From: an uncultured bacterium
Lineage (GTDB): Bacteria > Margulisbacteria > WOR-1 > CAVSGV01
Assembly (NCBI GenBank): GCA_963699255.1
Contig: OY969425.1
Location: 900,001-932,000, forward strand
DNA: 32,000 nucleotides
Direction of reading: 5' to 3'
A program made the position numbers and the translations under genes. Positions 3,565 through 29,100 of the stretch are shown piece by piece. Under the pieces are notes generated by a model. That model did not search any database. It was not told where the DNA came from and saw only the letters and a list, made by a program, of their open reading frames with translations. The stretch's first letter is position 1. Each line of letters begins with the position of its first letter.

Positions 3565-4986
3565 TCAGGCGATCATCGCGATGTCCACGACCATTTTGCC
3601 GTCCTCTATGGCCCTGAAAATGGCCGCGTCACACGTTTTCATCGCCTTTCTCGGGTTCCCTCCGCTTACTTCATAAATTTTCTCAAGAACATTATCTCCA
3701 AAGGGCCCGAAATCAGATCCGCCGGCATCCGCGATGCGCTTCATGATCAGTTTTTTAAAATCTGCCAGCTGGAGCTTTTCAAGCGTAATGTCAAGAACGA
3801 CCCTTTCAAATAAAGCTTTGATCTCCTTTTGAAATTTTTCTCTCGTTTCCGGGATCCCGGCTATAATTAAGTTGACCTCATCCAGATCTCCCAATGTCCG
3901 CAAAGGCTGCTCCACTTCCGGGGCAAGTTCATGGGCTTCGTCGATCAAAAGAAGGACATTTTTTCTCAGCTTTTTTAAATGCCTGCCGACGCTGTAAATA
4001 TTCCTGTGTTCATGCTGTATTCTTAATCCCGTTCTCAAAACGATCAGGTCGATCAACTCGTTGATCTCTCTCGGCGGTCTGGGCACATAAATGGCGAAGA
4101 AATTCTGCGAGAACCGCCTCTCAAGCCATCTAAGCAGTGTTGTTTTTCCTGTCCCGAAACCTCCTGTGATTATTATATGGCCGCTCCTTGCGGTGACTTT
4201 TTCGATCACTTTGCTCGCGACATCCTCATAGCCTGTGAAAAGCTGCGGCAAAATATCCAGCGTGAACGGGTTCTTCTTCCACCCATAGTAGCTGTACCAT
4301 TTCCTTATCCGCTCCCCTGCCTTTTCCACCTCAGAAATTTTGCTTCCGCACGCATAGCAAAACTCCGATCCTGTGCTGTTCCTTGCGCCGCAGATCGGGC
4401 AGACCCTGTATCTTTTATTGATCAAAAGGACAGTTAAAAATATTAAAATAAGCAATCCTAATAAGCCAAGTAAGATATCCAGGTTTTCCATTATCCGGCT
4501 TCTTACAATGTCCGCAAGAGATCCGGCCTGCCCGGTTTCAACGGCGGATCCCTCTATTACGGCAGGAGCAGGCACAGCCTCCTGTGTTACAACTGATCCC
4601 TTTGCCGCAACAGGCGCCCCCATCCCCATGACCGCTTCCACTTTTACATGATGAGGTACAGCGGAAACCGCCGGCCTACGCACCTTTGCTTTTATTTTGA
4701 CTATGCGCGGGGAAACTTTGGATTTTCGGATGTTTTTTTTCACAGCGGGCAAAGGCGTTTCTTTAGGGCTCTGTTTGGTCATCTCCTGCAGCAAAGCCTT
4801 GCTCTTCTGGTGCGCGGGATCAAGCAATAAAGCATGATCAAGATCATTTTTTGCGCTTTCTATGTCCCCGAACAAATATTTGCTGACAGCCGAATTATAG
4901 TAATCATCCGCCGTAACGGCAAAAGAGGTGCCGCATAAAACACAAATACTTATAAACAATAGTAAGGCAAAAAATATTTTTCGCAT
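3565..4986 (-). CDS. membrane-spanning ExeA/GspA/MshM-like AAA ATPase with N-terminal signal peptide + TPR-like region, one TM helix and a zinc ribbon
   Basis: 473 aa. Residues 1-23 look like a signal peptide (..CGTSFA/VT). Residues ~25-70 form a TPR-like helix pair (FGDIESAKNDLDHALLLDPAHQKSKA). Residues ~75-165 are a P/A/V/K-rich linker. The TM helix at 168-189 (LDILLGLLGLLILIFLTVLLI) is followed by KRYR. The zinc ribbon is CPICG-x10-CYACG (196-215). The ExeA-type entry NPFTLD..LF is followed by Walker A GGFGTGKTT and Walker B LLLIDEAH. The gene starts 8 nt after the upstream gene's stop. Confidence 0.7.
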   Translation of the reverse strand: MRKIFFALLLFISICVLCGTSFAVTADDYYNSAVSKYLFGDIESAKNDLDHALLLDPAHQKSKALLQEMTKQSPKETPLPAVKKNIRKSKVSPRIVKIKAKVRRPAVSAVPHHVKVEAVMGMGAPVAAKGSVVTQEAVPAPAVIEGSAVETGQAGSLADIVRSRIMENLDILLGLLGLLILIFLTVLLINKRYRVCPICGARNSTGSEFCYACGSKISEVEKAGERIRKWYSYYGWKKNPFTLDILPQLFTGYEDVASKVIEKVTARSGHIIITGGFGTGKTTLLRWLERRFSQNFFAIYVPRPPREINELIDLIVLRTGLRIQHEHRNIYSVGRHLKKLRKNVLLLIDEAHELAPEVEQPLRTLGDLDEVNLIIAGIPETREKFQKEIKALFERVVLDITLEKLQLADFKKLIMKRIADAGGSDFGPFGDNVLEKIYEVSGGNPRKAMKTCDAAIFRAIEDGKMVVDIAMIA

Positions 4987-4994
4987 TCGCTTAC

Positions 4995-6287
4995 CTACTT
5001 TCTCTCCACTTTAAGGATCAGCTCCAATTTCTTCTTCAATTCTTTCGCTCCTTGATGTTCCGGATCGATGGAAAGGACCAAATTAACTTCCTCCAAAGCC
5101 TTGTCATATTGTCTGGCTGAAACATACTTCATGGCTCCTTCAATATGGTCCTTCATTTCACTTTTCTTATCTGTCACAGAAACCACGGTCACCGCCGCTT
5201 CTTTTCCCTTTAGCTTGGCAAGAGCTTCTCCCCGCGCCTGGATTTCCAGTTCAAGCTGGGACTGTTGCAACAGAAGCTGCGCCTCGGCATTATCAGGATC
5301 GATGTCCAGAGCCCTTCCGAATCTTATTATAGCTTTGGAATATTCTTTTTCATTAAGCGATGTTTTCCCGTCGGCTATTTCCTCTGCGATCATTGCCCTT
5401 CTTTGCTCAGGCGCCCCAAAGAGAAGGCTAATGCTGAATTGATGAGCTGCCCCCAGATCATCGCTCGCAATATACGCGTAATCAAATTCAAAAAGCCCGA
5501 CAAGAAGCCCGAACCCGACACTGGGAAAAGTCCCGTTGTATCCGGCCCTTAGAGCGAGCATGCCTTTGATCCAGTATTCAGCCCCGCCGCAGAACTTTGT
5601 CCCGTCGACATCAGAAACGGCATCGGCCGCAAAATTGACCCTGTCATTTAACACCAAGGCCCTATAGAAAACTCCGGCCCTATAAGATGTTGGAAGCGGC
5701 GTATTCTCTGAAACATACTTTAAACCCGAGCCCACATTCAAAACTGACAATCCAAAAGCCAGATCCGGATCCAGTTGATAGCAGACGCCCGCGTCAAAAG
5801 CTACGGTACTGGCTGTGTATGAGTCCAGCTTATCCGAAATAAGCTTTGTCCCGATCCCCAGGCTTAGGTTTTGGTCAAACTTTCTCGCAAACACAAGTGA
5901 AAAACTGGATGAATTCGTGTCAAAGTCGGACGTATAAGCGCCGCTGTTGTCATACCCTTCAATATTACCCGACATAAGGGTGGAATAGCCGCAGCCCACT
6001 ACCCCGTAATCCGTAGGTATCGCAAAGCTGCCAAGATACTGGGTCATTTCGGCAAAGTGCTGGTTCTGCATCACCATCGCCTCAGGAAAGGTCAAGCGCG
6101 CGAGTCCGGCGGGATTAAAAAATACTGCCGAAGAATCGCCGGGCTGTGCCGAGTATGCCCCTCCCATGGCAAGCGGCCTGGCTCCGCCGAAAAGGTTCAG
6201 GAAGTCGCCGCCGTAACTGCCGCCGGCCGCCGCGAAAGCGGGCACTGTCAATAAGAATACCATTAAAGCGCAAAGCATCGCCTTCAT
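4995..6287 (-). CDS. PorV/PorQ-like outer-membrane beta-barrel protein with a 140-aa C-terminal TPR/coiled-coil extension
   Basis: 430 aa. It has a signal peptide (MKAMLCALMVFLLTVPAFA/AAG). The mature N-terminus GGARPLAMGGAYSAQPGDSSAVFFNPAGLARL carries the motif I associate with PorV/PorQ-family barrels. Amphipathic strand patterns run up to ..AHQFSISLLF. Two TPR-like units follow (..ALDIDPDNAEAQ.., ..LVLSIDPEHQGAKE..). The ATG overlaps the stop of the upstream giant gene (ATGA). Confidence 0.55.
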   Translation of the reverse strand: MKAMLCALMVFLLTVPAFAAAGGSYGGDFLNLFGGARPLAMGGAYSAQPGDSSAVFFNPAGLARLTFPEAMVMQNQHFAEMTQYLGSFAIPTDYGVVGCGYSTLMSGNIEGYDNSGAYTSDFDTNSSSFSLVFARKFDQNLSLGIGTKLISDKLDSYTASTVAFDAGVCYQLDPDLAFGLSVLNVGSGLKYVSENTPLPTSYRAGVFYRALVLNDRVNFAADAVSDVDGTKFCGGAEYWIKGMLALRAGYNGTFPSVGFGLLVGLFEFDYAYIASDDLGAAHQFSISLLFGAPEQRRAMIAEEIADGKTSLNEKEYSKAIIRFGRALDIDPDNAEAQLLLQQSQLELEIQARGEALAKLKGKEAAVTVVSVTDKKSEMKDHIEGAMKYVSARQYDKALEEVNLVLSIDPEHQGAKELKKKLELILKVERK

Positions 6288-9200
6288 CTTATAACTACCA
6301 GCTTGCCGGTCTTCGTATCATTGGAGCTCCTGATAACATATAAATATATGCCGCTCCTTAATTGTTCGTTGGAATCGTTCTCGACGTTCCAGACGTTCTG
6401 GCCGTCGCCGTCGTTTTCCTGGATGGTCTTGACCAGCTGGCCCGATACTGTGAATATCTTGATCGTGCATGACGTAGCCAGGTTCGTAAATGTGATGGTA
6501 GTGTGCCCTTCAGAAGGAACGAAAGGATTAGGATAAGGATGTGCATTGGATAGACTGGGACTCGGCAGGGACATGAGCACGTAAGTGGAAAAGTGTGGGA
6601 CAGCTGCCGCAAAACATTTTTGGCCTGATATGAGCGAGCTATCCGAAACCTTTACCCATGACGAGTCGGATTCATCCAGCCAGTAAATACTCACATTATG
6701 TATGCTCACAGGCGGCGATGTCCCGTCAATTATACCGTCGTCATTATTATCGGTATATGGGAGGTATATGGTCACCTTTTTCAGGAAATTATTCGTGATC
6801 ATGGCGCCGGTATTATCATAAGCTGCAAATTCGCGGTATGTCCCCGCTATAGGATGGAATGAAGGATTCCCCTGGGATGTGATCTTCGCGTTGGCCGCGA
6901 TGATCTTGGCGGGGTTTACCGCAATGGGAGAGCTCTGCGGATCGATACTGAACTGAACAGAATAGCTCCCGCTTACGGCTCCCGAAGGGAATGCAGCCCT
7001 GGTCTTGCCGTCGCTGGCGGTAAATACATTTGCGGTCCCGCTGTCAGCAATGACCCTGAAATCCCATGACAGCGCGGCTTGAAGAGGATTGCCAGAAGCA
7101 TCACAGGCCTCCGTGGAAATATTCGCCCTGTAAGTATAACCTTTTGTTAAAGGCACTGAAGGAGTGAATACGACCCTGTTACCGATCCAGCTATAGCTGC
7201 CTATTATAGGGATATTAATTGAATTTCCGCTGCTGTCCAAAATGGCTTTTAAGGTAAAGGCGTTTTGAACGGAGCCCGTATCCATAGCGGTGGAAAACTC
7301 AGCGGATACGGTCGCCTCCGGTGTTACGTTCGCGGCTTCGCCTGTCGGCGAGAAAAATGTTATCTGAGGACCTGTCATCGATCCTGTAACATCAAAGGAA
7401 GCTGATACCGCGGTAGATAGTCCGTTAGATCGCGCCTGGAGGGTATAGCCGGTCCCGGCCCTGTTGATCATCACACTTTCAAAGGTCGCGATCCCGCCGG
7501 CAACGATCTTCGTTTTTGTCCCGGTCAGGACCCCTCCCCCCGGATTGTTCTGGATCTCAACGGTGACCATGGAGGTGTTGTTATTTGTGACCGTATTGCC
7601 GTACTGATCCCTGAGCGCGATACGGGGAGCCGGAAATAAGCTGACCCCGGCGGCAGAATCAGCAGGCTGAACCTCAAAAGTGATGTTGCTTGCAGCCGCA
7701 TTCGTGATACTGAAAGCGCTTGAAGCGGCTGACGTTAAACCTTCTGCCGTAACACTTAAAGTATATCCAACTCCAGATTTGTCGATGCTTAAGTTCTCAA
7801 ATGTGGCCACCCCGCCTGAAACCTGTTCCGTCAATGTTCCTGATAATGTCCCGCCGCTGGGGTTACTTTGTATCTCAATGGTCACAACGCTCGTGTTGTC
7901 GGTCGTGACAGGATTTCCGTATTGATCAAGGGTCCTTGCCTCCACTGACGGGGCGATATTTGTGCCTGCGGCAGCGCTCGACGGCTGAACAACGAACCCG
8001 AGCTGACTTGAAGAGGCCGGTGTAATATTAAATGCGCTGGAAGTAACAGGCGTAAGGCCTGATGACGTTGCCTGCAGCGTGTACCCTGTCCCGGACTTGT
8101 CGATGCTTAAGTTCTCAAATGTGGCCACCCCGCCTGAAACTTGTTCCGTCAAGGTGCCCGATAATGTACCGCCACCGGGATTGTTTTGTATCTCAATGGT
8201 GACAACGCTCGTGTTATCAGTTGTAGGATTCCCATATTGATCAAGTGTCTTTACCTCAATTGACGGAGCAATGCTTATTCCCGCGACAGCACTCGATGGC
8301 TGAACAATATAGCCAAGCTGACTTGAAGATGAAGATGTTATGTTAAATGTGCTGGAAGTTGACGATGTTAAACCTTGCGCCTTGACCCTTAAAGTATATC
8401 CAACTCCAGCTTTATCGATGCTTATGCTCTCAAATGTGGCAATACCGCCGGAAACCACTTTAGTCAATGTCCCTGACAATGTCCCCCCGCCAGGGTTGCT
8501 CAGTATCTCAATAGTTACAACGCTCGTGTTGTCAGTCGTGACAGGATTCCCGTATTGATCCAGGGTCTTTACCTCAACTGACGGGGCGATATATATCCCC
8601 GCAACTGCGCTCGTCGGCTGAACAATGTAGCCAAGCTGGCTTGATGATGCTGATATAATATCAAATGCGCTTGATTCAGTCGAAGTTAAGCCTGATGACT
8701 TTGCCTGCAAAGTGTACCCTGTCCCGGACTTGTCGATGCTTAGATTCTCAAATGTGGCCACGCCGCCGGAAACCTGTTTCGTAAAGGTGCCTGATAATGT
8801 CCCGCCGCCGGCGTTATTTTTTATCTCAGCAGTAACAACAGAGGTATTGTCAGTTGTGACCAGATTCCCGTATTGATCAAGGGTCTTTACTTCCACTGAC
8901 GGGGCGATACTTATTCCTGCGACAGCGCTCGAAGGCTGAACAATATAGCCAAGCTGACTTGAAGATGCTGGTGTAATATTAAATGTGTTTGAAGTAGCTG
9001 ATGTTAAGCCAGATGACGTTGCCTGCAGAGTGTACCCTGTCCCGGATTTGTCGATGCTTAGATTCTCAAATGTGGCCACGCCGCCGGAAACCTGTTTCGT
9101 AAAGGTGCCTGATAATGTCCCGCCGCCGGGGTTATTTTGAATGGCAACAGTTATATATGTGGAATTATCGGTCGAGTCAATATTGCTGTTCTGATCCTGG

Positions 9201-11116
9201 ACCGTAACTTCCACAGTTATCGGAGAACCCGCGGAAGTGCCAACAGGCTGGGTCTTCCAGCCCAATTTCGTTGAAGTGCTCTTCCAGGCCGCGTATCGGT
9301 AAACGACAGTATTTGCATTAACCGTCGCATTTGTTCCGACCTGGAATCCATTCACCTCAAGCGCTTGTACGGCATCAGCTAAATTCGCGGTCGCGGTAAA
9401 ATACTGGGTATTATCCCCTAAAAGGCTGGCCGGCCTAAGCACGGCCCCGCTGGTGACTTCCGGCCGCTTTACCCAAACGAGCCCGGGCCTGAAACCAACG
9501 CCGGTAATGGACCTGTTATCAGATCCGTTCCCGGTATAGGTGGAAGTTGAAAATTGATTACCGGTGTTCTTAAAAGCGAAGTAAAAATAAGTCGTTGCCG
9601 CCGTATTAACGACTGCGTTCGTTCCCACCTGGAATCCGCTCGCCTCCAAAGCCTGGACCGCATCAGCGATGTCAGCAGTAGCCGAAAAGTAGGCGGTGGC
9701 ATCACCGGCGATCGATGAGGTACGGAACACTCCAAAGGTCGCCCCGGTGCTTTTTACCGCCACAAGATCGGGCTGAAAGGAAAGGCAGGGCATAGAACGA
9801 TCGTCTCCGCCAGTTCCGGTGTATGCCCCGACGGCAAAGTTTGTGGAATTCGTTGTCCCTTTGAACGCCATCCAGCGGTAAGTAGTCGCTCCGGTATTGA
9901 CCGCTGCATTCGCTCCAACCGAAAATCCGTCATTATCAAGGGAGGTTACGCCATCGGCGAAACTGGCGGTTGCAACGCCCATATATGCGGTGGAATTAGG
10001 CGCCATTAACGATGTGGTGAATACTGCCGAACCGCCGGCTGTATCCGCCTTAACAATGACAAGGTCTGGCTTAAATCCCACTCCGGTGATCGACTGACTT
10101 GATCCATTGCCGGCATAGGAGCCGCTGAGCATTTTAAATGTTCCGGAAAGTGCCGGAGAAGGAACGCCCCTAAAAGCAGCATAGTAATAAGTGCTTGCTG
10201 CCAAATTCACACGGCCGTTCGTCCCTACCTGGAACCCGTCGCTTTCCAGGGTTTGAACATGGTCGGTCGCATTAGCTGCGGCAGTGAATATCTGGCTCTC
10301 GTCGCCGTAGCTCTGGTTGCTTCGCAAGGCGGCAGCATTGGTCACCGCCGACTGTTTAACGAACATAAAATCGGGCTTGAACCCGACCCCCGTTATGTCG
10401 CGGTTATCCGTTCCGTCCCCGACATAACTCCCAACGGCCATGCTGCCCGCGACCGATTTAAACGCGACATAATAATATGTGCTTGCCGCAGCATTGGTCT
10501 CTGCGTTTGATCCGACCTGGAATCCGTCAGACTGAAGAGCCTGGATCATGTTCGGGATCGGAGCGGTGGCGGAAAAATAGTGGCTATTGTCCCCGCCCAT
10601 TGAAGATGAATTCCACACCCCTAATGAGGCGCCGTCTCTTTTTACCCACACCAGGTTCGGCTGAAAACCTATACCGATGATATTCCTGTCATCGGCCCCG
10701 TTACCTGTATATGATCCGACCTTAAAATCCGCTCCCCCGCTGCCGTAAAAAGCGATCCATGTATATCGCACGTTCGCTGAATTGACGTTTGCGTTCGTTC
10801 CCAGTGAGAACCCGTCTGAATTAAGAGAGGTAATTAAACCTGTATCGTTCGGAACGGCATTCTCAAAATAAGCGGTGGAATCCCCCATCATGGCCGAGCT
10901 TTTCCAAACAGCCCTGCCGGCCGCCGTATCCGATTTAATGATCACCAGATCAGGCTGAAAACCTACCCCGGTGATCGAGCGGGAAAATCCCGTGCCAACA
11001 TAATAGCCTGTTTGAATGGAAAATGCGTAAGCGGAAGTCCCAATAAATAATATTGAGAGGAAAATGATGAAAAAAGCAATGCAAAATAACCTTCTCAGTG
11101 AACCCCCCCTCCTCAT
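6284..11116 (-). CDS. giant repeat-built surface protein (1610 aa) with T9SS-type C-terminal sorting domain
   Basis: The signal peptide is MRRGGSLRRLFCIAFFIIFLSILFIGTSAYA/F. It is followed by 6 copies of a ~97-aa unclassified repeat and 6 copies of a 105-106-aa Ig-like repeat. Next come an SbsA/Big_5-like Ig domain (ITFFSPTGEAANV...DASGNPL..SWDFRV) and a further beta-rich region. The protein ends in a CTD. Confidence 0.85.
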   Translation of the reverse strand: MRRGGSLRRLFCIAFFIIFLSILFIGTSAYAFSIQTGYYVGTGFSRSITGVGFQPDLVIIKSDTAAGRAVWKSSAMMGDSTAYFENAVPNDTGLITSLNSDGFSLGTNANVNSANVRYTWIAFYGSGGADFKVGSYTGNGADDRNIIGIGFQPNLVWVKRDGASLGVWNSSSMGGDNSHYFSATAPIPNMIQALQSDGFQVGSNAETNAAASTYYYVAFKSVAGSMAVGSYVGDGTDNRDITGVGFKPDFMFVKQSAVTNAAALRSNQSYGDESQIFTAAANATDHVQTLESDGFQVGTNGRVNLAASTYYYAAFRGVPSPALSGTFKMLSGSYAGNGSSQSITGVGFKPDLVIVKADTAGGSAVFTTSLMAPNSTAYMGVATASFADGVTSLDNDGFSVGANAAVNTGATTYRWMAFKGTTNSTNFAVGAYTGTGGDDRSMPCLSFQPDLVAVKSTGATFGVFRTSSIAGDATAYFSATADIADAVQALEASGFQVGTNAVVNTAATTYFYFAFKNTGNQFSTSTYTGNGSDNRSITGVGFRPGLVWVKRPEVTSGAVLRPASLLGDNTQYFTATANLADAVQALEVNGFQVGTNATVNANTVVYRYAAWKSTSTKLGWKTQPVGTSAGSPITVEVTVQDQNSNIDSTDNSTYITVAIQNNPGGGTLSGTFTKQVSGGVATFENLSIDKSGTGYTLQATSSGLTSATSNTFNITPASSSQLGYIVQPSSAVAGISIAPSVEVKTLDQYGNLVTTDNTSVVTAEIKNNAGGGTLSGTFTKQVSGGVATFENLSIDKSGTGYTLQAKSSGLTSTESSAFDIISASSSQLGYIVQPTSAVAGIYIAPSVEVKTLDQYGNPVTTDNTSVVTIEILSNPGGGTLSGTLTKVVSGGIATFESISIDKAGVGYTLRVKAQGLTSSTSSTFNITSSSSSQLGYIVQPSSAVAGISIAPSIEVKTLDQYGNPTTDNTSVVTIEIQNNPGGGTLSGTLTEQVSGGVATFENLSIDKSGTGYTLQATSSGLTPVTSSAFNITPASSSQLGFVVQPSSAAAGTNIAPSVEARTLDQYGNPVTTDNTSVVTIEIQSNPSGGTLSGTLTEQVSGGVATFENLSIDKSGVGYTLSVTAEGLTSAASSAFSITNAAASNITFEVQPADSAAGVSLFPAPRIALRDQYGNTVTNNNTSMVTVEIQNNPGGGVLTGTKTKIVAGGIATFESVMINRAGTGYTLQARSNGLSTAVSASFDVTGSMTGPQITFFSPTGEAANVTPEATVSAEFSTAMDTGSVQNAFTLKAILDSSGNSINIPIIGSYSWIGNRVVFTPSVPLTKGYTYRANISTEACDASGNPLQAALSWDFRVIADSGTANVFTASDGKTRAAFPSGAVSGSYSVQFSIDPQSSPIAVNPAKIIAANAKITSQGNPSFHPIAGTYREFAAYDNTGAMITNNFLKKVTIYLPYTDNNDDGIIDGTSPPVSIHNVSIYWLDESDSSWVKVSDSSLISGQKCFAAAVPHFSTYVLMSLPSPSLSNAHPYPNPFVPSEGHTTITFTNLATSCTIKIFTVSGQLVKTIQENDGDGQNVWNVENDSNEQLRSGIYLYVIRSSNDTKTGKLVVIR
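6287..6544 (-). other. T9SS type-A-like C-terminal sorting domain (CTD) of the 1610-aa protein
   Basis: The last ~85 aa read AHPYPNPFVPSEGHTTITFTNLATSCTIKIFTVSGQLVKTIQ..VWNVENDSNEQLRSGIYLYVIRSSNDTKTGKLVVIR. This matches the pattern of the Por secretion tail (YPNPF, T.I.F, I.IF...G.LV, SG.Y, K..K.V.I). Confidence 0.65.
7385..9265 (-). repeat. six tandem Ig-like coding repeats, period 315-318 nt
   Basis: These are residues 618-1244 of the 1610-aa protein. The unit is LGYIVQPSSAVAGISIAPSVEVKTLDQYGN.VTTDNTSVVT.EI.NNPGGGTLSGT.TKQVSGGVATFENLSIDKSGTGYTLQA.SSGLTS..S.AF.IT. Exact DNA identity occurs at a 318-nt offset: the 42-mer at 7781-7822 equals 8099-8140, and the 80-mer at 8732-8811 equals 9050-9129. 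Confidence 0.9.
9266..11023 (-). repeat. six tandem copies of an unclassified ~95-101-aa coding repeat
   Basis: These are residues 32-617. The recurrent pattern is F.VGSYTGNG.DNR.ITGVGF.PDLV.VK...(8-10)..S..GD...YF.A.A...D.VQALE.DGFQVGTNA.VN....TYYY.AF. Confidence 0.85.
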
Positions 11117-11544: not shown

Positions 11545-11567
11545 GTCAGTCACAGCCGCCGTAGTAT

Positions 11568-11641
<74 letters not shown>

Positions 11642-11684
11642 TTTCTCTTTTTTCCTGCTCCTGCGAGGATAATCACTGATCCCC

Positions 11685-12734
11685 TTAACCAACCTTCTGG
11701 TCTATTATTTCGCTCGGTGCACCCGCGGTGCACCCAACCTGTAAAACACTTACCGCTTTCTTGAGATTCTCCATCCTTATGTGAGCATATACCTGAGTTG
11801 TCTGGACTGAGGCATGCCCTAGAAGATTTTGAACCTCATAGATCGGTACTCCTCTTTGAACCAAGAGGCTTGCGAACGTATGCCTTAACTTATGCAGATG
11901 CCCTTTTATGCTTAATCTGTCCAAGAGCTTCTTGAATCGGTGATAATAATCGCTAACGGGCATTCCTTCATTGTATTCAAAGACATATACCTGTTTATCG
12001 CTTTTGCGCAGATACAGCGAAAACATGTGCTGAAACAACGTTTCATTCATCGGTATTGTCCTGAACCTGTGTGACTTCGATATTTCGATATTGATAACCT
12101 TGTTCTTGAAGTCCACATCAGCCCATTTAAGCCGTTTTATCTCACTGGCCCTAAATCCGGTATTCAAAAGGACTATCACATAATCCCTGATGAACGGCTC
12201 CGCTGCCGCTAATATCTTTTCAATTTCTTCTTCGGTGAACCATTCTGGCCGCCTTTTGTCCACCTTAAGCTTTGTTATCTTCGGGATATTAGCCAGATAC
12301 TGCCTTTCTACGGCAAACCTGAGCATCGTGCCCAGCAGAATGGAGTGGTTATTTACAGTCTTGTTACTCTTGCCTTCTTTGCTCCACTTTGACTGGGCCT
12401 CTTGAATCCTGAGTGTCGTTATTTGGATCAGCTTTAACGCCCCGAATTCCTTCAATAATGCCTTTATGACAGAGCCATCCTTCTCGTATGTTGAGCTCAT
12501 TTTCCTGGAGACTGAGTAATCCCCATACTCTTTAGTCAGTTTATAAAAACTGACCTCTTTCATATATAGGGATACCGGCTTACCGGATACAAGCTCACCC
12601 TCATACATCCGCAAATATTCTCTTGCCTCTCTCAAAGTCCTAGCGGGAATCTTCCGCGAGTTTTGTCTCCCACATGTCTTATCGATAATGTGGAAAGTAA
12701 TCCCCTTGCCGGTGCGTCTCCTTCTAATAAACAT
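11685..12734 (-). CDS. int: tyrosine recombinase / phage-type integrase
   Basis: 349 aa. The catalytic signature is present: TGFRASE (Arg), HKLRHTFAS (His-x-x-Arg) and LLGHASVQTTQVYAHI (His, Tyr). It lies adjacent to the tRNA 3' end. The start overlaps the upstream stop (TAATG) and is preceded by a strong SD, AAGGAAGGAG. Confidence 0.9.
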   Translation of the reverse strand: MFIRRRRTGKGITFHIIDKTCGRQNSRKIPARTLREAREYLRMYEGELVSGKPVSLYMKEVSFYKLTKEYGDYSVSRKMSSTYEKDGSVIKALLKEFGALKLIQITTLRIQEAQSKWSKEGKSNKTVNNHSILLGTMLRFAVERQYLANIPKITKLKVDKRRPEWFTEEEIEKILAAAEPFIRDYVIVLLNTGFRASEIKRLKWADVDFKNKVINIEISKSHRFRTIPMNETLFQHMFSLYLRKSDKQVYVFEYNEGMPVSDYYHRFKKLLDRLSIKGHLHKLRHTFASLLVQRGVPIYEVQNLLGHASVQTTQVYAHIRMENLKKAVSVLQVGCTAGAPSEIIDQKVG

Positions 12735-12964
12735 TATTCACTCCTTCCTTGAGGAGACTGCCCGGACAAATTATCCATGAATTTGTTTACTTCTTCAACC
12801 CTAAACCGAACGGATCGTCTGTTCTTTATCTTCGCATTAGAGGATTTAACGGAAGGCAAGTAGATAGGCGTTAAAATACCTTTTTCCGCATAGGCATAGA
12901 CCGTGCTTTTGCCAATGCTAAGCATTTCGACTATATCTTTTACGGTTAGTAATAGCTTTTTCAT
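12734..12964 (-). CDS. small helix-turn-helix DNA-binding protein, excisionase/AlpA-like
   Basis: 76 aa. LTVKDIVEMLSIGKSTVYAYAEKGILTP is a typical excisionase-family HTH. It lies directly upstream of the integrase and is translationally coupled to it. Confidence 0.7.
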   Translation of the reverse strand: MKKLLLTVKDIVEMLSIGKSTVYAYAEKGILTPIYLPSVKSSNAKIKNRRSVRFRVEEVNKFMDNLSGQSPQGRSE

Positions 12965-13048
12965 GATAATGTCTGCCTTGTGCCATATCTATATCAGGAT
13001 TTGTGGCGAGGAATTTCTTCGGTAATTCTTTTGATGTTTCCGTGGGGC

Positions 13049-13636
13049 TTAGGGGTTTACACTTCTGAATTCTTCTCTTTTTCTTTTTTCCCTAAGTTTT
13101 TGCATAAGCTTGCGACTTTTCCCTCTTTTTTCTTCCTTGTGTTTAATAAAATATTGATTATCATCATACCTTTTTTTACATGAAGCACCTCGCATGTATC
13201 GATTACAAAAAATCGCATCTTTTTCCCATAGGAATAAACTGCCACAGTATTTGCATTTACACGCGAGATGTTTCTTTTCAAGTACTTCGACTAATTGTTT
13301 ACACATCTGATATATATCGTAATTCCCCCACTCAAGTTTTGTCATGAGACTTTCGCCCTTTTTTATTCTTTCTAAATCTTTACTGGTAGAATAATAGTGG
13401 CACAAAGTATTAAGATCATCAGAGATGGTATTGAACAATGCAAACCCTTTATCAATGTCCCGTTTAACAAAAGTCAATCTTGCAACATTAGTTAGTATTC
13501 TTTTTGTTTCATCGGGATCTTGGAAGATCATTGAAGGAGGGAGTTTTTTATAAGTTATTCTGGTTTCAACCTTGAATTTACGTCTAAATCTCTTATATAC
13601 CTTCTTAAAGATAGCCTCATTATTTTTTATGCTCAT
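13049..13636 (-). CDS. hypothetical protein with Cys-cluster (putative zinc finger) and highly basic C-terminal tail
   Basis: 195 aa. The Cys cluster is C-K-C-KY-C ...(12)... C ...(8)... C (ACKCKYCGSLFLWEKDAIFCNRYMRGASCKKRY). The tail is KHKEEKRGKSRKLMQKLREKRKREE. I recognise no family. Confidence 0.55.
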   Translation of the reverse strand: MSIKNNEAIFKKVYKRFRRKFKVETRITYKKLPPSMIFQDPDETKRILTNVARLTFVKRDIDKGFALFNTISDDLNTLCHYYSTSKDLERIKKGESLMTKLEWGNYDIYQMCKQLVEVLEKKHLACKCKYCGSLFLWEKDAIFCNRYMRGASCKKRYDDNQYFIKHKEEKRGKSRKLMQKLREKRKREEFRSVNP

Positions 13637-13675
13637 AAAATATAGTTAATCTCAAAGAGATAATTTACTCACCCG

Positions 13676-13693
13676 CCTTACCCCCACTATTAC
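13676..13693 (+). repeat. candidate attR: imperfect direct copy of the tRNA-fMet 3' end
   Basis: CCTTACCCCCACTATTAC aligns with tRNA/flank CCT-ACCCCCGCTATTTC (11629-11645) at 15 matches, 2 mismatches and 1 gap. C-runs are otherwise rare in this AT-rich segment. Confidence 0.35.
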
Positions 13694-13819
13694 GCTCAGA
13701 TTATATCAGCCACCTTATAGGCCGGCAACAAGGCGGGCAATTTTAACATCAGAAACGTCAGAAATATCAGGGGATTAAGGTGGGACTATGGACAGCTTGG
13801 ATATTTGCTTCGTAATAAA

Positions 13820-22197: not shown

Positions 22198-23199
22198 TTA
22201 CCATTTTCCAGTTAGACTAACTCTGTGCACATTATCTTTCGTTAAACTGGTTTGAGTTACATATGCGTAATCTATACTGATGTGGTCTGCTTCAAAACCA
22301 GCTCCTCCGGTCATCGCCTGTTCGCTGTACCCAACCCTGAAAGCGATCTGTCCGAATTTAGCTTCGGCTCCGGCACTTCCTTCAGGAACATAACCGGCTT
22401 TATTGATTTGGCTGACATCACCCGATAATATCATCGGGTTCCCAATTATCGGAACTCGAGTACCAAATGCTAATCCAAGTCTATACTTCGACGGGACTAT
22501 TTCTTCCGTGTCCGTTCCCCACTTCTGATAATTGATCAGTTCATCAATTTTGAAACCTATTGAGAGATTATTTGTCGGTTTATAAAGTAGTCCCGGCGTA
22601 ACTGAATACCCATAGGCGCTGGCTCCTTCGATTGATACCAACCCTGGCATGTCTGATGTTAAATATTTGGCGGTTATGCCAAAGCTTAGATTGTCTGTAA
22701 TATTTCTTCCATAAGCGAGCAGGTACGCATTGGAGAAGTAGCTAAATATGCCGAGATTGACAACCTCGTTATATTCGCTCGTAGAAGAGCCGGTTTGGGA
22801 AACCGAACTCATCCCCACCTGTATCCAACTTATACCTAACCCTCCGCCAAAGAGCGGAGTAACATAGCTTACATAATAATGGTCGGCATTAGTGGATAAC
22901 TTTGTCTGCATAGCCGTTATTTCATTATTGTTTATTTGTGCTAGTCCCGCGGGGTTCCAGAATGGGGCATCAGCGTTATCCGCCACGGCAGTAAAAGCAC
23001 CGCCCATTCCCAAAGCTCTGGCTCCAACACCGGCTTCGAGAACGGCAATATCCAGACCAGCCTGCCCTGTTACTGCGTAACACGGGATTTCCAATGTCCA
23101 ATTCCAAATGACAAATAAAATCCCAATGACCAATATCCAAATTGGAAATTGGGATTGGGTCATTAATTTGACATTTGACATTGGAAATTTGTCATTCAT
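22198..23199 (-). CDS. PorV/PorQ-like outer-membrane beta-barrel protein (paralog of 4995..6287, no TPR tail)
   Basis: 333 aa. The motif VGARALGMGGAFTAVADNADAPFWNPAGLAQI parallels the first barrel. Amphipathic strands run to the C-terminal aromatic ..HRVSLTGKW. The ATG overlaps the stop of the upstream giant gene (ATGA). The hydrophobic leader FPIWILVIGILFVIWNW..PCYA/VTG is encoded by a low-complexity repeat. Confidence 0.55.
   Translation of the reverse strand: MNDKFPMSNVKLMTQSQFPIWILVIGILFVIWNWTLEIPCYAVTGQAGLDIAVLEAGVGARALGMGGAFTAVADNADAPFWNPAGLAQINNNEITAMQTKLSTNADHYYVSYVTPLFGGGLGISWIQVGMSSVSQTGSSTSEYNEVVNLGIFSYFSNAYLLAYGRNITDNLSFGITAKYLTSDMPGLVSIEGASAYGYSVTPGLLYKPTNNLSIGFKIDELINYQKWGTDTEEIVPSKYRLGLAFGTRVPIIGNPMILSGDVSQINKAGYVPEGSAGAEAKFGQIAFRVGYSEQAMTGGAGFEADHISIDYAYVTQTSLTKDNVHRVSLTGKW
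23100..23195. repeat. low-complexity CCAAT/ATTGG-rich imperfect palindrome
   Basis: The sequence is aattccaaatgacaaataaaatcccaatgaccaatatccaaattggaaattgggattgggtcattaatttgacatttgacattggaaatttgtc. The arms AATGACCAATATCCAAATT and GGAAATTGGGATTGGGTCATT are imperfectly complementary around ~23141. It shares a 21/24 match with 11352-11375 in inverted orientation. Confidence 0.35.
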
Positions 23200-26100
23200 T
23201 TTAGCACTGCTATATTCCCTCTTCCCGTCACGGACTTATCCCCATAATTAACGGTTATTTCAAACGGATAAATGCCGTTAAGAACCAAATCTCCCCTGCC
23301 GTTCCTTCCATCCCACTCAACATCGTTATATTTGCTCCAAATACTTGCTCCTTCGGGATTCGTCGTTCCGTCAAGCTCTTTTACTAATGCTCCCGTGATG
23401 TCATATATCCTTATCGTAACTGAATTAGGTTCTCTGCCTAGCCTGTAGCGGATTTTTGTTCTTTCTTTATTAGGATCGAATGGATTAGGCCAGTTGGTGA
23501 CACTTGATAGGCTTGAAGGCAATTCTATCCTGAAAGAGCCAACTTCAGATGTTGAAGCTTCCGAGGTGATTGTTTGCACTCTCCAGTACCAGTACGGATT
23601 GTTTGGAGTGCTTTCATCAAGACCCATAAAGTGTTCGTTCTGGGTATATTCGCATACAGGTTTTGCGGCTGAGACATCGGTTATTGTCGCTGTGAAATAA
23701 TCAAGGCTACCTGAAAGCGAAGTTTCATCGGAAGTTGTCGCGCATTCGATCCTGTAATCCTTAACATTTTGAACCCCGTACCATTTGAATGTCGGGCGGA
23801 GAGATTTAACAGTCGCTTTATCAATCGGGGAGATAAGCTCCGGCGTGCTTGAGCTGGATTGAATAATTATTGGCGTTTGAATGACAGGTTGCTCTATCGG
23901 CATAGACATGGTTGTCATACCAGAACTGGTGAATGGAGCAAAATTGCTCGGAATCTTCTGGAAGAATATTTCTGATGTTCCCGTTCTTGTGTCTTCCCAT
24001 GCGACATAGGCGTTACCGGATGTCTCGCAGACAATAGAGGGTTTGGAAGCTTCACAGTTTGTGAAGTCGTGCATGGTAATTCTGGCAGTCCCATTGCCCG
24101 GACTGCTCCAGTCTATGGAATTGCCAGCGCCATTAACAGTGCCTTTTCTGACATAAAGTTCCTTATGGCCTCCATTTGCATCATCAATATATGCCACATA
24201 GATAGTATTGCCGATCAAAGCAATTGAGGGCATTATGCAATTGCCGGAAGACGAAACAATCAATGACCCGTCCGTTGGCCATGTTTCCCCGGAATTTGTC
24301 GACAGAGTTAGATATATTTTACCTCTTGTATTTCCATTGTTCCTGTAATCCTCCCAGACGACATAAACATTGGTGCCGGCGGTATTCGTTGTAATTGCAG
24401 GATTAATCGCATCTCCATTCCCATTTGAAATCCTAGATTCGATAGGATACCAATCTGACCAATAATTCTGAGGGCCCCAAAGATATGTTGTTCCTCTGAG
24501 AGTCCCGTTTGTTCTTTTGTTATACACGATCTGATTATTGCCAAAGGACGTAAAAGTGGAAAGGACACTATAGTAATAAGGCGGAGGAGGATCATGATCT
24601 TCCGCATAATTGCTCTGCCCCTTATATTCAGATGACCAAACATAATGCGCAATTTTGCCGTTGGAGCTGGAAGCAGATAAAATATCAGGAATACTTTCTA
24701 ATGTTATTCCCGCGTTCCATCCATTATTAATAGGTAATAAAAGACTTTTCTTTCTGTTATATTCTTGCGCTTCATATGTTATCTTAAGGCCGGATCCGGC
24801 GCTTTGATTATGAGGCGCATTCGCATAAACATAAGCGTAATACTTGCCCGCAGGCAATGTTATCGATTTATATTGAGTTTTTGTAACTGTGTCGCCATTA
24901 CTGGTGTTATCCACATACCGCCATGGGCTTGAATCTGAATTATTCATATCCGAGATTTTCATGAGATAGCCACCGTAGCTATTAAGCGCCATCCAATAAC
25001 ACAGATTTAATGTTTGATGACCACTCGTAACCGTGAAAGGAAATTCAAAGTTAAGCCCAGCAGCCCCGTAATCATAATAACTTGCGTAACGTGAAATTAT
25101 TTTATCCCCAAAACTTTCACCTGTTGCATATTTTAAGAATAAATAGCCGGCAGTTTCCTGCAGATTCGGATCGTGCGAATATGAGCCGCTTTCATGGGTT
25201 GTTACTTGTTGGTCATCAGCAATAGATACTGTTTGTGTGATAACAGTATTATTCCCCGCAAGATCGGTCAGGGATAATCTTATCTGATAATTGCCTTCAT
25301 TTACATAATCACTGGGACTGGCATCGTTAAGACCTGTCCAGCTGACATATTTACTGCCGCTTGTCACAGGTTGATTTATTTTAAGTGCGGCTATCTTTGT
25401 CGCGCCGTTCCATACATCTGAATCAAGGGTAATACTTGAACAGGGAACAGTATAACCGCTCGCATTGAAAGAATTATCATCTATCTGATACTCAACCGAA
25501 ATTGTACCGTCAAGATAAGGATTGAAATAACTTCTTGGCTGGCCGTTTGACTTGATCAATATGTTTGATATTTGCGGAGGCAGATTGTCCACATTGAATG
25601 TCCTTCTTGCTTCAGCCGTATTTCCCGCCGCATCCACAGCATACAGCTCTATCGTGCAGGTTTTATTGACGGCAGACGCATCCCAGGGAATTATTGATTC
25701 ATTAGTTTTATTTCCTTCACCCGTACCAAGATTTGTGTATGAACCGTTATATCCAATAGAATAATTCACGTGATTCGCGTCGTAAACGCTTCCAATAATA
25801 TTAATTGTCCCTTTCTGCCATGAACTATCCGGCGGGCTTGTGATCTGCGCCACCGGCGCGACAGTATCAACAACAGCCTGGCTGCAATTTGAGGTTATCC
25901 CTGAAATAATGCTGTTCGTTGCCGGATCGCCTATCATATCAACAGCTTTAACTTCTATTGTATAAGAGCCATCTGATACTACCGTGCCAGATGAATTCTT
26001 TCCGTCCCAAGTGACTTCATATGTTATTCCTGCTTCGCGCGAAACCGAATCCATAAGGGTTCTGATCGTGTTTCCCGACATATCCTTAATTTTCATTGTG

Positions 26101-29100
26101 ACTTTACCGACATTGTAGCCGGACGCCATGATCTTCATCCCGGCGATCTTCATCCCTTTCGATTGCAGATAATATGGATGGACTTCCCCAGTGGTCTCCA
26201 GATTGAATGAAATGACTGTCGAATCCTTTATTCCGTCGCCGTTCGGAGAAAAATACGGGTTACTCGGATCGCTTAATATCTCGCCAAAGCTTAGATAAAC
26301 CTTATCAACCTGTATGCTATTATTGGAAACAAGAGTGGCGGTGTTTCCAAATACATCCGATGCCTTTATGACATATTTATATAACCCCATGTCCGCGTAT
26401 CCATTTCCGTCAGCGTCTCCGTTGCCTCCCCGAATATTTACCCTTCCATCCCACAAGGTATCTCCGCCTGCCGATCCAATAAGGCTACGGACAAGAGTAG
26501 AAGCGTCAAATGTAACAGCGGAGTTGTATATCCTAACTTCTACAGATGATATTGGATTTCCCACATCAGTAACCTGATACTTAATAGTGACATCGTCTTG
26601 CTGACTGTCGCCATTCGGAGTTATCGGCTCTGTGGGACTTATGCCGTTATCCGATATTTTAGGCGGGCCTCTGTCAATGATAAGATCAGCTACGAACGGA
26701 TAAACTGTTCCAGTCGGATCTGTTGCCTGAACTTCCAGCGTATAAGTCCCATCCATAACTTTACCGCCGATCTGGTTATTCAATCCGTCCCAGTTAAGCG
26801 AGTAGTTTCCTTCTCCTTTTGTATCGGTAAAACTATAGACTTTTGTTCCTGTTTTATCATAGATGTTTATCGCAATTTGCGAGTTGCCGGAGATCAAGCC
26901 GCCTTTATAGTCGATCGAATATGAAATAACCGTGTATTCATCGACTCCATCTCCGTTCGGAGAAATCTTTAGCGGGGCCGCCTCTAAGGATATCGTCGGA
27001 CTTTTAACCAATGTAATATCTCCGCCAGTTAATGAGCTGGTATTGCCGGCGCTGTCCAAAGCTGATATTTCGCATATATATTTCCCATCAGGACACATGC
27101 TGTTTGATATATCCTTCCCATCCCACACAAAGGAACCCGTGATGGGCGACTTAATACCAAAACCTGTAAATGTTCTAACTGTTGTTCCTGAAAGCGTCTT
27201 TATTTCAACCGTTGATACGATATTCCCAACCCCACCGCTTACAACATATCCTATAGTTGTAGTATCATCATGACCGTCTCCGTTTGGCGTAAAAATTATC
27301 GGGGCAGAGCTTTCTCCGGTTATCTTTAATTCCGCGCTGACCAGAAGATCAGTTGTATATGAATAAACAGTCCCCGTGGGATCTGATGCCTGCATCTTTA
27401 GCGTGTATGTACCGTCCGGAACAAATCCGCCCGCCTGGTTGTTTTCCCCTCCCCAAGTATATGAATAGCTGCCTTCTCCCTTTGTATCGGCAAGCGAGTA
27501 AACTTTAATGCCGTAATGATCGAAAATATCCATTGCGACTTGCGAATCACCGGAGATCAATCCTCCGTAACTGATCACACAGTACATTGTAGAAGCATTG
27601 GTTATACCATCGCCGTTTGGAAACAATGTTTTTGGTGCCGCATACATGGATATTGCAGCATTTGCGGCAAGAACAATGCCGCCTGAAACTGTTGGAGATG
27701 AATTGCCCGCGGAATCGACAGCCGTGATCTTATATGTATACTCGCCGTCGGGACATGGGTTGCTTGATACATCTTTGCCGTTCCAAGTAAAGGAGGGATT
27801 AGAGCCTGGGGAATAGGGACTAGAAAAGACTTTCACTGTGGTGCCCGCTAATGACTTTATCTCTACCGTTGATACACCGTTTCCGACACCACCGGAAACA
27901 AAGTATGAAATGATCGTAGTATCATCATGTCCATCCCCATTCGGCGAAAATATTATTGGTACAGCACTCTCTCCTGTTATCTGTAATCCCGCACTGACAA
28001 CGAGATCGGCAGTATATGAATACACAGTTCCCGTAGGATCTGTTGCCTGTACTTCTAATGTGTATGTTCCGTCCGGGACATATCCTCCTGCCTGATTATT
28101 CTCCCCGCCCCAGGGATATGAATAGCTACCCTCTCCTCTTGTGTCAGTAAGCGAATAAACCTTTATTCCAGATCCATTGAAGACCTCAATCGTTAATTGC
28201 GAATTGCCGGAGAATAAACCTTCGTAACTGATAGCGCAGTGGATCGTGGCAGTGTCGTCTACCCCATCATTATTCGGGGATATTGTTTTTGGATTCGCGG
28301 ACATTGTTATCGTCGGATTTGCGGCAAGAATAACACTTCCTTCTACACTGGAAGATAAGTCTCCTGTGGAATCTGCCGCGGTTATCTCATATTGATATTT
28401 TCCATCCGGACACAGGTTGTTTGATCCGTTTTTCCCATCCCATGTAAAAGAACACGTAACGGGAGTTCCAGCATCTGAATCTGTAAACGTTTTTACCGTT
28501 GTTCCGGAAAGCGTCTTTATTTCAACGGTTGACACAACACTTCCAAAACCGCCGCTTACGACATATCCTATGGTAGTATTATCATCATGATTATCTCCAT
28601 TCGGCGTAAATATCGCAGGCACGGGGCTTTCTCCCGTTATCTGTAATGGCGCGCCAACAACGAGATCTGTCGCATAATAATATATGGTTCCCGTAGGATC
28701 CGATGACTTAACTTCCAGCCTGTAAGTTCCGTTAGGAACGATCCCGCCGGTTTGATTGTTTTGTCCGTTCCACTTATTGGAATAGTTACCTTCCCCTTTT
28801 GTATCGGAGAAGTAATAAACTATCGTATTTGATCGATCATATATGTTTTCCGTTACCTGCGAGTTGCCCGTAATAAGCTGGCCCTGATAATTGATGTTAT
28901 AGTAAATGTTCATATCGCTACCGCTGGAAGAAATCGTCTTCGGGTCTGCATAAACGATTATGGTGGGATTTCTTATTAGAGTAAGGCTCCCTGTTATCAC
29001 CGATGCCTGGTTGCCGATGCTATCAGACGCGGATATCTCGTACTGATACTGGCCGTCGGGACTCATGTTATTCTGTTCATCCTTCCCGTCCCAAATCTCC

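Follow-up and report, generated by a model that had tools for sequence, protein, structure and literature searches.

An ExeA-like ATPase of inverted domain order, encoded behind a PorV-like barrel and a CTD surface protein in Margulisiibacteriota

What would an ATPase of the ExeA kind do beside an outer-membrane barrel of the PorV family? This question is raised by a gene at positions 3565-4986 of a stretch of 32,000 nucleotides (hereafter the window; contig OY969425.1, positions 900,001 to 932,000, assembly GCA_963699255.1) from an uncultured bacterium of the Margulisiibacteriota, whose genome is one 1.77-Mb contig and whose TypA protein is 75-79% identical to WOR-1/Saganbacteria/Margulisiibacteriota proteins. 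The gene is a single open reading frame (ORF) on the minus strand (the initial annotation had named no strand; a plus-strand reading of the interval is ruled out, as that frame is full of stops). It encodes an ExeA-like AAA+ ATPase with an N-terminal tetratricopeptide repeat (TPR) and closes a dense row of three minus-strand genes, the other two encoding a surface protein with a type IX secretion system (T9SS) C-terminal domain (CTD) and a PorV-like barrel. We propose, with a probability of roughly one half, that the ATPase is an ATP-dependent, ExeA-like scaffold of the inner membrane whose periplasmic TPR arm docks the tail of its cognate barrel, or the CTD protein bound to this barrel, for assembly, loading or display.

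Architecture and family of the ATPase

The initial annotation had described a signal peptide, a TPR-like helix pair, a P/A/V/K-rich linker, a single transmembrane helix with positive-inside bias, a zinc ribbon and an ExeA-type AAA domain along the protein. Each of them was recovered, and all six are kept across 35 aligned homologues (alignment A1). The parts are as follows (AlphaFold2 is abbreviated AF2; pLDDT, predicted local distance difference test).

3565..4986, minus strand: whole gene, 473 aa (P0001), encoding signal peptide, TPR, spacer, transmembrane helix, zinc ribbon and ExeA-like AAA+ ATPase
4918..4986, minus strand: signal-peptide-like N-terminus, residues 1-23 (MRK n-region, hydrophobic core of 16 residues, SFA/VT site; AF2 helix 2-20)
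4771..4911, minus strand: one TPR unit and a capping helix, residues 26-72, predicted periplasmic (AF2, TPR matches in PDB, invariant residues)
4525..4770, minus strand: disordered P/A/V/K-rich spacer, residues 73-154, predicted periplasmic (low pLDDT; length and composition vary in relatives)
4420..4476, minus strand: transmembrane helix, residues 171-189 (AF2 helix 155-188), then NKRYR (hydrophobicity, AF2, charge bias)
4336..4407, minus strand: C4 zinc ribbon (CPIC ... CYAC), residues 194-217, predicted cytoplasmic and near the membrane (Pfam Zn_ribbon_3, Zn_Ribbon_1, DZR)
3583..4296, minus strand: ExeA-like AAA+ module, residues 231-468, beginning with WKKNPFTLDI (TIGR03015, AAA_22)
4138..4164, minus strand: Walker A, residues 275-283, with invariant K281
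3937..3954, minus strand: Walker B, residues 345-350, with invariant D349 and E350
within 3583..4296, minus strand: lid of the AAA+ module with GNPR, carrying the invariant, sensor-2-like Arg446

Pfam places AAA_22 at residues 268-384 (1.7e-15) and Zn_ribbon_3 at residues 194-217 (8.5e-6) and finds no PG_binding, LysM, SPOR or SH3 domain in the protein. The best NCBIfam family is TIGR03015 (ExeA-like, XrtA-associated), aligned from model position 3 to 255 of 269 over residues 231-468 at 1e-24; its score of 87.5 bits is far under the curated cut-off of 324.5. The single TPR unit falls under the Pfam thresholds and was assigned through the family profile, which matches consensus TPR proteins in PDB (E 9e-22).

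An AF2 model built from alignment A1 (mean pLDDT 82) is confident for the TPR, the transmembrane helix, the zinc ribbon and the AAA+ core. It has TPR helices at residues 26-38, 42-55 and 60-72 (pLDDT above 95), disorder at 78-154 (pLDDT below 50), a long helix at 155-188, two short hairpin strands at 193-204 and a complete AAA+ core with lid at 254-461. Foldseek against PDB returned ORC2/Cdc6, MuB, TnsC, RFC, RuvB and DnaA (E 1e-9 to 1e-7), with no ExeA structure among these matches. The predicted fold is thus of the ORC/MuB/TnsC switch-type or loader group of AAA+ proteins, not of the unfoldases, which favours ATP-controlled oligomerisation over a mechanical relay of ATP turnover to the periplasmic TPR, as the initial annotation had envisaged it for a trans-envelope coupler.

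Signal peptide and topology were judged by heuristics (N-terminal composition, charge bias). The family N-termini carry one to three Lys/Arg and a hydrophobic core. An AxA-type cleavage site (A/G/S at -1, small or aliphatic at -3) lies exactly at the aligned position in 19 of the 35 homologues, and the others have an AxA-like site within ~2 residues of it; cleavage probably occurs near residue 23 of the window protein. The net charge around its transmembrane helix is -1 before and +4 after (family means +0.9 before and +3.1 in the 15 residues after), and the charge after the helix exceeds that before it in 27 of 34 homologues. An ATPase domain must face the cytoplasm. Together with the charge bias and the signal-peptide-like N-terminus this would put residues ~24-170 in the periplasm, whether or not the N-terminal helix is cleaved; the protein would accordingly be single-pass, N-out/C-in, with the TPR outside and the zinc ribbon and ATPase inside.

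GspA-annotated proteins match the window ATPase at E 1e-17 to 1e-9. In all 39 ExeA/GspA-type matches of the module HMM (hidden Markov model), the ATPase module begins at residues 1-38 and runs to ~265, and the transmembrane helix and periplasmic domains come after it, in agreement with the published ExeA layout of N-terminal ATPase, transmembrane helix and periplasmic domain (PMC4098917). The module of the window protein is C-terminal (residues 225-473), so the domain order is opposite to that of ExeA/GspA, as the initial annotation had stated. Its term "reversed membrane topology" fits how the domains follow one another in the chain and which way the transmembrane helix points; it does not fit the predicted placement of the functional halves, which is that of ExeA (ATPase inside, second domain periplasmic).

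A search of 5.8 billion proteins gave ~45 proteins of the same layout (430-530 aa, 33-79% identity), named in the databases merely "AAA family ATPase" or "predicted ATPase ExeA". Their sources are metagenome-assembled genomes (MAGs) of Margulisiibacteriota and Saganbacteria and, in one case, a MAG labelled Omnitrophota. Conservation of the whole arrangement at such identities places the layout beyond chance. In the 35-homologue alignment the TPR residues Y37, G40, A45 and P57 are invariant, the four Cys of the CxxC...CxxC ribbon are each at least 90% conserved, a conserved motif W..GWKKNPFTLDI precedes the ATPase core, and R363 and R395 are invariant beside the Walker and lid residues listed above. 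Spacer length ranges between 35 and 117 aa; some relatives have a Pro-rich spacer (up to 30% Pro), others one with a second TPR. Neither Pfam, NCBIfam nor the protein search offered an already named family with a known role, and the permuted ExeA-like architecture has no family name yet.

A profile search of 1.84 billion representatives gave ~20-28 clusters with the full layout above 320 bits, followed by an archaeal type at 160-245 bits and by ExeA proteins at ~125 bits or less. Within the phylum, the family is present in 31 of 146 genomes (18 of the 72 high-quality ones), all in the host's class of Margulisiibacteriota and spread over eight families; some genomes carry two or three copies. 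The archaeal relatives (~355 aa, same KNPF(T/S)L start, C-terminal winged helix) belong to Aenigmatarchaeota, Woesearchaeota and Nanobdellati MAGs (DPANN; L028-L042, P0046-P0049), and their gene neighbourhoods are uninformative (tRNA-guanine transglycosylase, DUF92, a kinase-like protein, i.e., housekeeping). A contig binned as Altiarchaeota encodes a 361-aa protein of zinc ribbon and ATPase that lacks a TPR and shares 40% identity with the window protein (L021:5917-7002); it sits behind a CarboxypepD_reg-domain protein, and the contig may be mis-binned bacterial DNA or reflect a transfer.

Simpler bacterial relatives (P0224, P0226, P0228) consist of an N-terminal anchor, zinc ribbon and ATPase alone, with no periplasmic domain, and a weak profile match of the family to RadA spans the zinc finger and the P-loop. 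Both would suit a membrane-tethered cytoplasmic zinc-ribbon/AAA+ factor that acts on nucleic acid or another partner and whose neighbourhood is a historical accident. We regard this as highly improbable, given that the TPR is conserved and that the neighbourhood hardly changes across eight families in the class; that TPRs are fused to the barrel in some loci and split from it in others, as described below, argues against an accident as well.

The cassette of surface protein, barrel and ATPase

In the window, the two genes in front of the ATPase gene are the following.

4995..6287, minus strand: barrel gene, 430 aa, with signal peptide, PorV/PorQ-family beta-barrel (28-289) and helical TPR tail (293-429) (NF033709, AF2, Foldseek)
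6284..11116, minus strand: surface protein, 1610 aa, first gene of the operon, with six DUF7483 domains, immunoglobulin (Ig)-like repeats, Big_5 and a T9SS type-A CTD (Pfam, NCBIfam)
6293..6535, minus strand: T9SS type-A CTD of the surface protein, residues 1528-1608 (TIGR04183)

The stop codon of the surface-protein gene overlaps the start of the barrel gene (ATGA), and the latter ends 8 nt before the ATPase start codon. Both assignments exceed the family cut-offs: the 430-aa protein scores 126.8 bits with NF033709 (cut-off 90) and the CTD 41.5-48.7 bits with TIGR04183 (cut-off 23). In the AF2 model of this protein (pLDDT 80), residues 69-289 form a beta-barrel and residues 293-429 five helices behind it, and the best Foldseek matches of the 430-aa protein are the PorV chains 8gl6_F (E 2.8e-15) and 6h3i_F of SprA complexes, ahead of FadL, TodX and TbuX. 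The chain ends of FadL-type barrels face the periplasm, so that the TPR tail of the barrel and the TPR of the ATPase would share one compartment.

The cassette has 47-52% GC, like the housekeeping flank, and an island at 12-22 kb has 36-40%; a recent import of the cassette was therefore dropped from consideration. A tRNA-Met (CAT) gene at 11567-11642 lies just upstream of the surface-protein gene and is followed by a tyrosine integrase (window 11567-13700) and then by the low-GC island, which extends to ~22 kb.

The arrangement recurs in other genomes. A barrel gene lies directly upstream of the ATPase gene in the window and in 16 fetched loci, and the scan of the phylum added at least 17 genomes with a PorV-family match in that place on the same strand; the adjacency of barrel and ATPase thus holds in most of the loci examined. 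The usual order in most loci checked is CTD surface protein, often a tail-only protein, PorV/PorQ-like barrel, ATPase and often a receiver. Two classes of cassettes can be distinguished. Class A (the window, L003/4, L006, L008, L015, L017, L022, L026, L027) has a large CTD protein, often a protein of ~107 aa consisting of signal peptide and CTD, a barrel with TPRs (420-505 aa) and the ATPase. Class B (L001/2, L005, L016, L018-L020, L024) has a CTD protein of ~400 aa, a PorV-like barrel of 329-345 aa, a secreted Ig-like protein of ~270 aa ending in one TPR, and the ATPase. Hence, barrel and TPR are fused in class A and split into a barrel and an Ig-TPR protein in class B. The idea that the spacer of the ATPase is Pro-rich solely when the barrel carries TPRs was rejected, as both spacer types occur in the split-barrel class. 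Genomes with two ATPases may carry a cassette of each class: in the two-copy genomes G121 and G122 one ATPase belongs to class B, and directly upstream of the other lies a PorV-family match. Of the three copies in G083, one is part of a class B cassette.

Small proteins of signal peptide and CTD (~107-120 aa) are encoded at L004:8150-8476, L006:8235-8558, L022:6346-6684, L026:7887-8219 and L025:9579-9938. The tail-only proteins are 40-63% identical to the tail of the big protein of their cassette; the window cassette has none.

The cassette CTD is 45-68% identical across genomes whose ATPases share 33-40%, but it shares only 27-37% with the remaining CTDs encoded in the host genome, which points to a constrained, cassette-specific partner.

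Type IX components in the host and the role of the ATPase

The host genome encodes 13 PorV-family barrels and ~17 CTD-like tails, and at least 10 of the barrels are directly behind a CTD-bearing ORF. Examples of the PorV-family loci are found at G000:C1: 49735-55252, 202045-204757, 280217-282863, 473526-477633, 817390-820052 and 1259626-1261736; several of the barrels have 560-860 aa and so contain extra domains. A second pair is present in the window itself, on the minus strand at 22198-32000: a 3365-aa protein (23196-33293, to genome position 933293) whose tail is weakly CTD-like overlaps the start of a 333-aa barrel (22198-23199; PorV family, 109.9 bits, above the cut-off) that has no TPR tail and is followed by a XerC/D-like integrase, with no ATPase.

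The translocon SprA/Sov was not found in the host genome (TIGR04189, with a cut-off of 200 bits, matched only locally and with 38 bits at the most, the ORFs concerned having 845-1136 aa), nor was the sortase PorU (NF033707 matched only via its CTD part, positions 846-1095, at up to 45.6 bits; cut-off 420). TIGR03513 and TIGR03517, for GldL and GldM (PorL and PorM), had no match in the host genome, the control genomes being equally silent. Two paralogous loci, L067 (G000:C1:1086214-1091657) and L068 (G000:C1:495234-501629), encode a giant CTD protein (3552 and 4722 aa, respectively), a PorV-like barrel, an NHL beta-propeller (~325 aa) and a protein of ~1133 aa. The latter has a hint of an outer-membrane beta-barrel and a weak local match to SprA (positions 558-712) and is possibly a small translocon-like partner.

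In the mechanism that we propose, the ATPase of the cassette would be a single-pass AAA+ switch ATPase, related to ExeA/GspA but of permuted order and anchored in the inner membrane. TPR and flexible spacer would reach into the periplasm, with the zinc ribbon and the ATPase staying in the cytoplasm. ATP binding and hydrolysis would control the self-association of the cytoplasmic domains, as in ExeA-type proteins, and thereby cluster the periplasmic arms into a scaffold. Such a scaffold may then take hold of the barrel by its periplasmic TPR tail, or of the surface protein by the tail domain that the barrel binds, and help to place, assemble or load the pair of barrel and cargo correctly in the outer membrane. 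This proposal is built on what was observed of the architecture and its conservation, on catalytic motifs that are intact, on the linkage of the genes and on a partner that folds like PorV; the topology, ATP-dependent oligomerisation, TPR docking and a role in assembly or display are what these observations suggest.

Several observations weigh against this proposal. In sequence, the module comes closest (33-40% identity) to soluble ATPase-winged-helix proteins of archaea, which are no secretion factors. When the ATPase and the barrel-TPR protein were compared by pairwise BLAST, their TPR regions showed no specific match that was significant (the HMM matches that the two share were rejected as a sign of specific kinship, being generic TPR similarity). 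Three ATPase copies have no detectable upstream barrel (L078, L080, L083/L025). Furthermore, ~10 other pairs of tail and barrel in the host genome have no ATPase, and PorV-family barrels occur in 135 of the 146 phylum genomes, whereas the ATPase occurs in just 31. As the barrels are far commoner, the ATPase appears to be an accessory of one particular pair and not of such pairs generally. Finally, a single-domain receiver gene often follows the ATPase gene, in at least five of nine fused-barrel loci directly and sometimes overlapping it, which fits signalling as well.

Indeed, the TPR might sense the barrel-cargo pair or the state of the envelope, and the AAA+ switch might talk to the receiver or to gene expression with no help in assembly. 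Apart from the receiver genes, the fold is of the ORC/Cdc6/STAND-like switch kind, the archaeal relatives just mentioned carry a winged helix, and genes for sigma-54 regulators are found near the cassettes of L005 and L007. Nevertheless, we consider such a switch unlikely: no receiver gene adjoins the window's own cassette, neither Pfam nor NCBIfam reveals a DNA-binding or kinase domain in the ATPase protein, and it is more typically the component of a machine that is coupled so strictly, in one operon, to two structural genes of the envelope. That the receiver replaces the ATPase in genomes lacking the latter was not confirmed at eight sampled loci with PorV-family ORFs of 410-500 aa; two of the barrels there were scanned and have no TPR, and the scanned downstream genes are housekeeping or unassigned.

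The ATPase could also be a true energiser, an ATP-driven counterpart of TonB or PorLM whose mechanical work, passed on by spacer and TPR, drives the tagged protein through or onto the barrel. Its layout of anchor, variable Pro-rich spacer and distal binding domain is TonB-like, and with SprA, PorU, GldL and GldM not found in the genome, the export of a 1610-aa protein would want another energy input. To us this seems even less likely than a signalling switch, as the group of ExeA, ORC, MuB and TnsC works by assembly and disassembly and not by pulling, a disordered spacer is a poor transmitter of force, and the genome's other tail and barrel pairs manage with no ATPase; besides, the silent controls leave the absence of GldL and GldM unproven. 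Docking by an ATP-controlled scaffold is thus the reading that we prefer.

With this cassette, proteins may be mounted on the cell surface in a manner not described before. More speculatively, and with considerable doubt, one may think of a self-contained, T9SS-independent and ATP-dependent pathway of outer-membrane display or secretion, in which the CTD and PorV module works with neither SprA translocon nor PorLM motor; if true, this would be a new kind of envelope machine. The pairing of CTD and PorV in the cassette might then reflect an ancestral use. To our knowledge, ATPases of the ExeA type have been described only in the service of secretins, as cytoplasmic modules at the N-terminus; in the present family such a module is rewired in the reverse order, to an arm of TPR and a barrel of the PorV type. 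The T9SS is described in papers as confined to Bacteroidota or the FCB group, yet nearly every genome of this phylum, which stands next to Cyanobacteria and for which the T9SS is not described, holds several PorV-family barrels, and one has to ask how giant tail-bearing proteins reach the surface, or stay there, with no SprA, PorU or PorLM. Our literature searches on Margulisbacteria/Saganbacteria with T9SS or PorV, and on PorV with ExeA, turned up no work on this cassette. With its three genes the unit is compact enough for reconstitution, and the natural series of fusion and fission (barrel with TPR versus barrel, Ig-TPR protein and TPR-ATPase) predicts contacts.

Comparison with known systems

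The surface protein and barrel resemble the T9SS pairs PorU-PorV and PorZ-PorQ and the PorV shuttle of Porphyromonas gingivalis, where a type-A CTD protein likewise has a PorV/PorQ-family barrel as its partner, by which it can be kept at the surface; PorV and PorQ hold the CTD-retaining proteins PorU and PorZ there (PMC5562754). The host differs in that it belongs to Margulisiibacteriota, outside the group for which the T9SS is described, in that SprA/Sov and PorU were not found, in that each cargo has its own barrel, and in that an ATPase, not the proton-driven PorLM motor, is linked to the pair in the window.

The ATPase of the XrtA/PEP-CTERM system (TIGR03015) is the best-scoring curated family, with an alignment over nearly the full model, and it too belongs to a sorting system for C-terminal tags with a TPR partner (PrsT). 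However, these ATPases are soluble or have the module at the N-terminus (~350 aa), and Exosortase_EpsH had no match in the 1.77-Mb host genome (the control genome was positive). With TonB and TolA the window protein shares an inner-membrane anchor, a Pro-rich spacer of variable length and a distal domain able to reach an outer-membrane barrel. This is an analogy only, as there is no sequence relation, the polarity along the chain is opposite, and the window protein would be linked to ATP rather than to the proton-motive force.

ExeA/GspA, the ATPase for assembly in type II secretion (ExeAB in Aeromonas), comes closest among the named families. ExeA has a role in secretin assembly, and its ATPase is required for complex formation and for assembly of the outer-membrane protein (PMC4098917). 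In both cases, an AAA_22-type module with an N-terminal "PF" motif is combined with a single transmembrane helix, with the second domain periplasmic and the ATPase cytoplasmic (as predicted for the window protein), and the gene is linked to that of an outer-membrane protein, whose assembly ExeA supports. In contrast to ExeA, the window protein has the ATPase at the C-terminus (predicted N-out/C-in), a TPR instead of a peptidoglycan-binding domain in the periplasm, an extra zinc ribbon and merely 25-29% identity; its locus has no ExeB/GspB partner, and the outer-membrane partner is a PorV-like barrel instead of a secretin. The two secretins of the host are encoded at 994 kb and 1291 kb of the genome, more than 60 kb past the end of the window (900-932 kb).

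In the MSHA pilus system (Vibrio cholerae VC0403/VC0404), an outer-membrane pore, an ExeA-like ATPase (MshM) and a TPR protein (MshN) are likewise encoded in one operon. As the initial annotation had said, MshM and MshN are separate polypeptides, encoded by adjacent genes beside the mshL secretin gene (PMC4624765). The pore of that system is a secretin, whereas the window cassette fuses a TPR to the ATPase across the membrane and further TPRs to a barrel of the FadL/PorV type.

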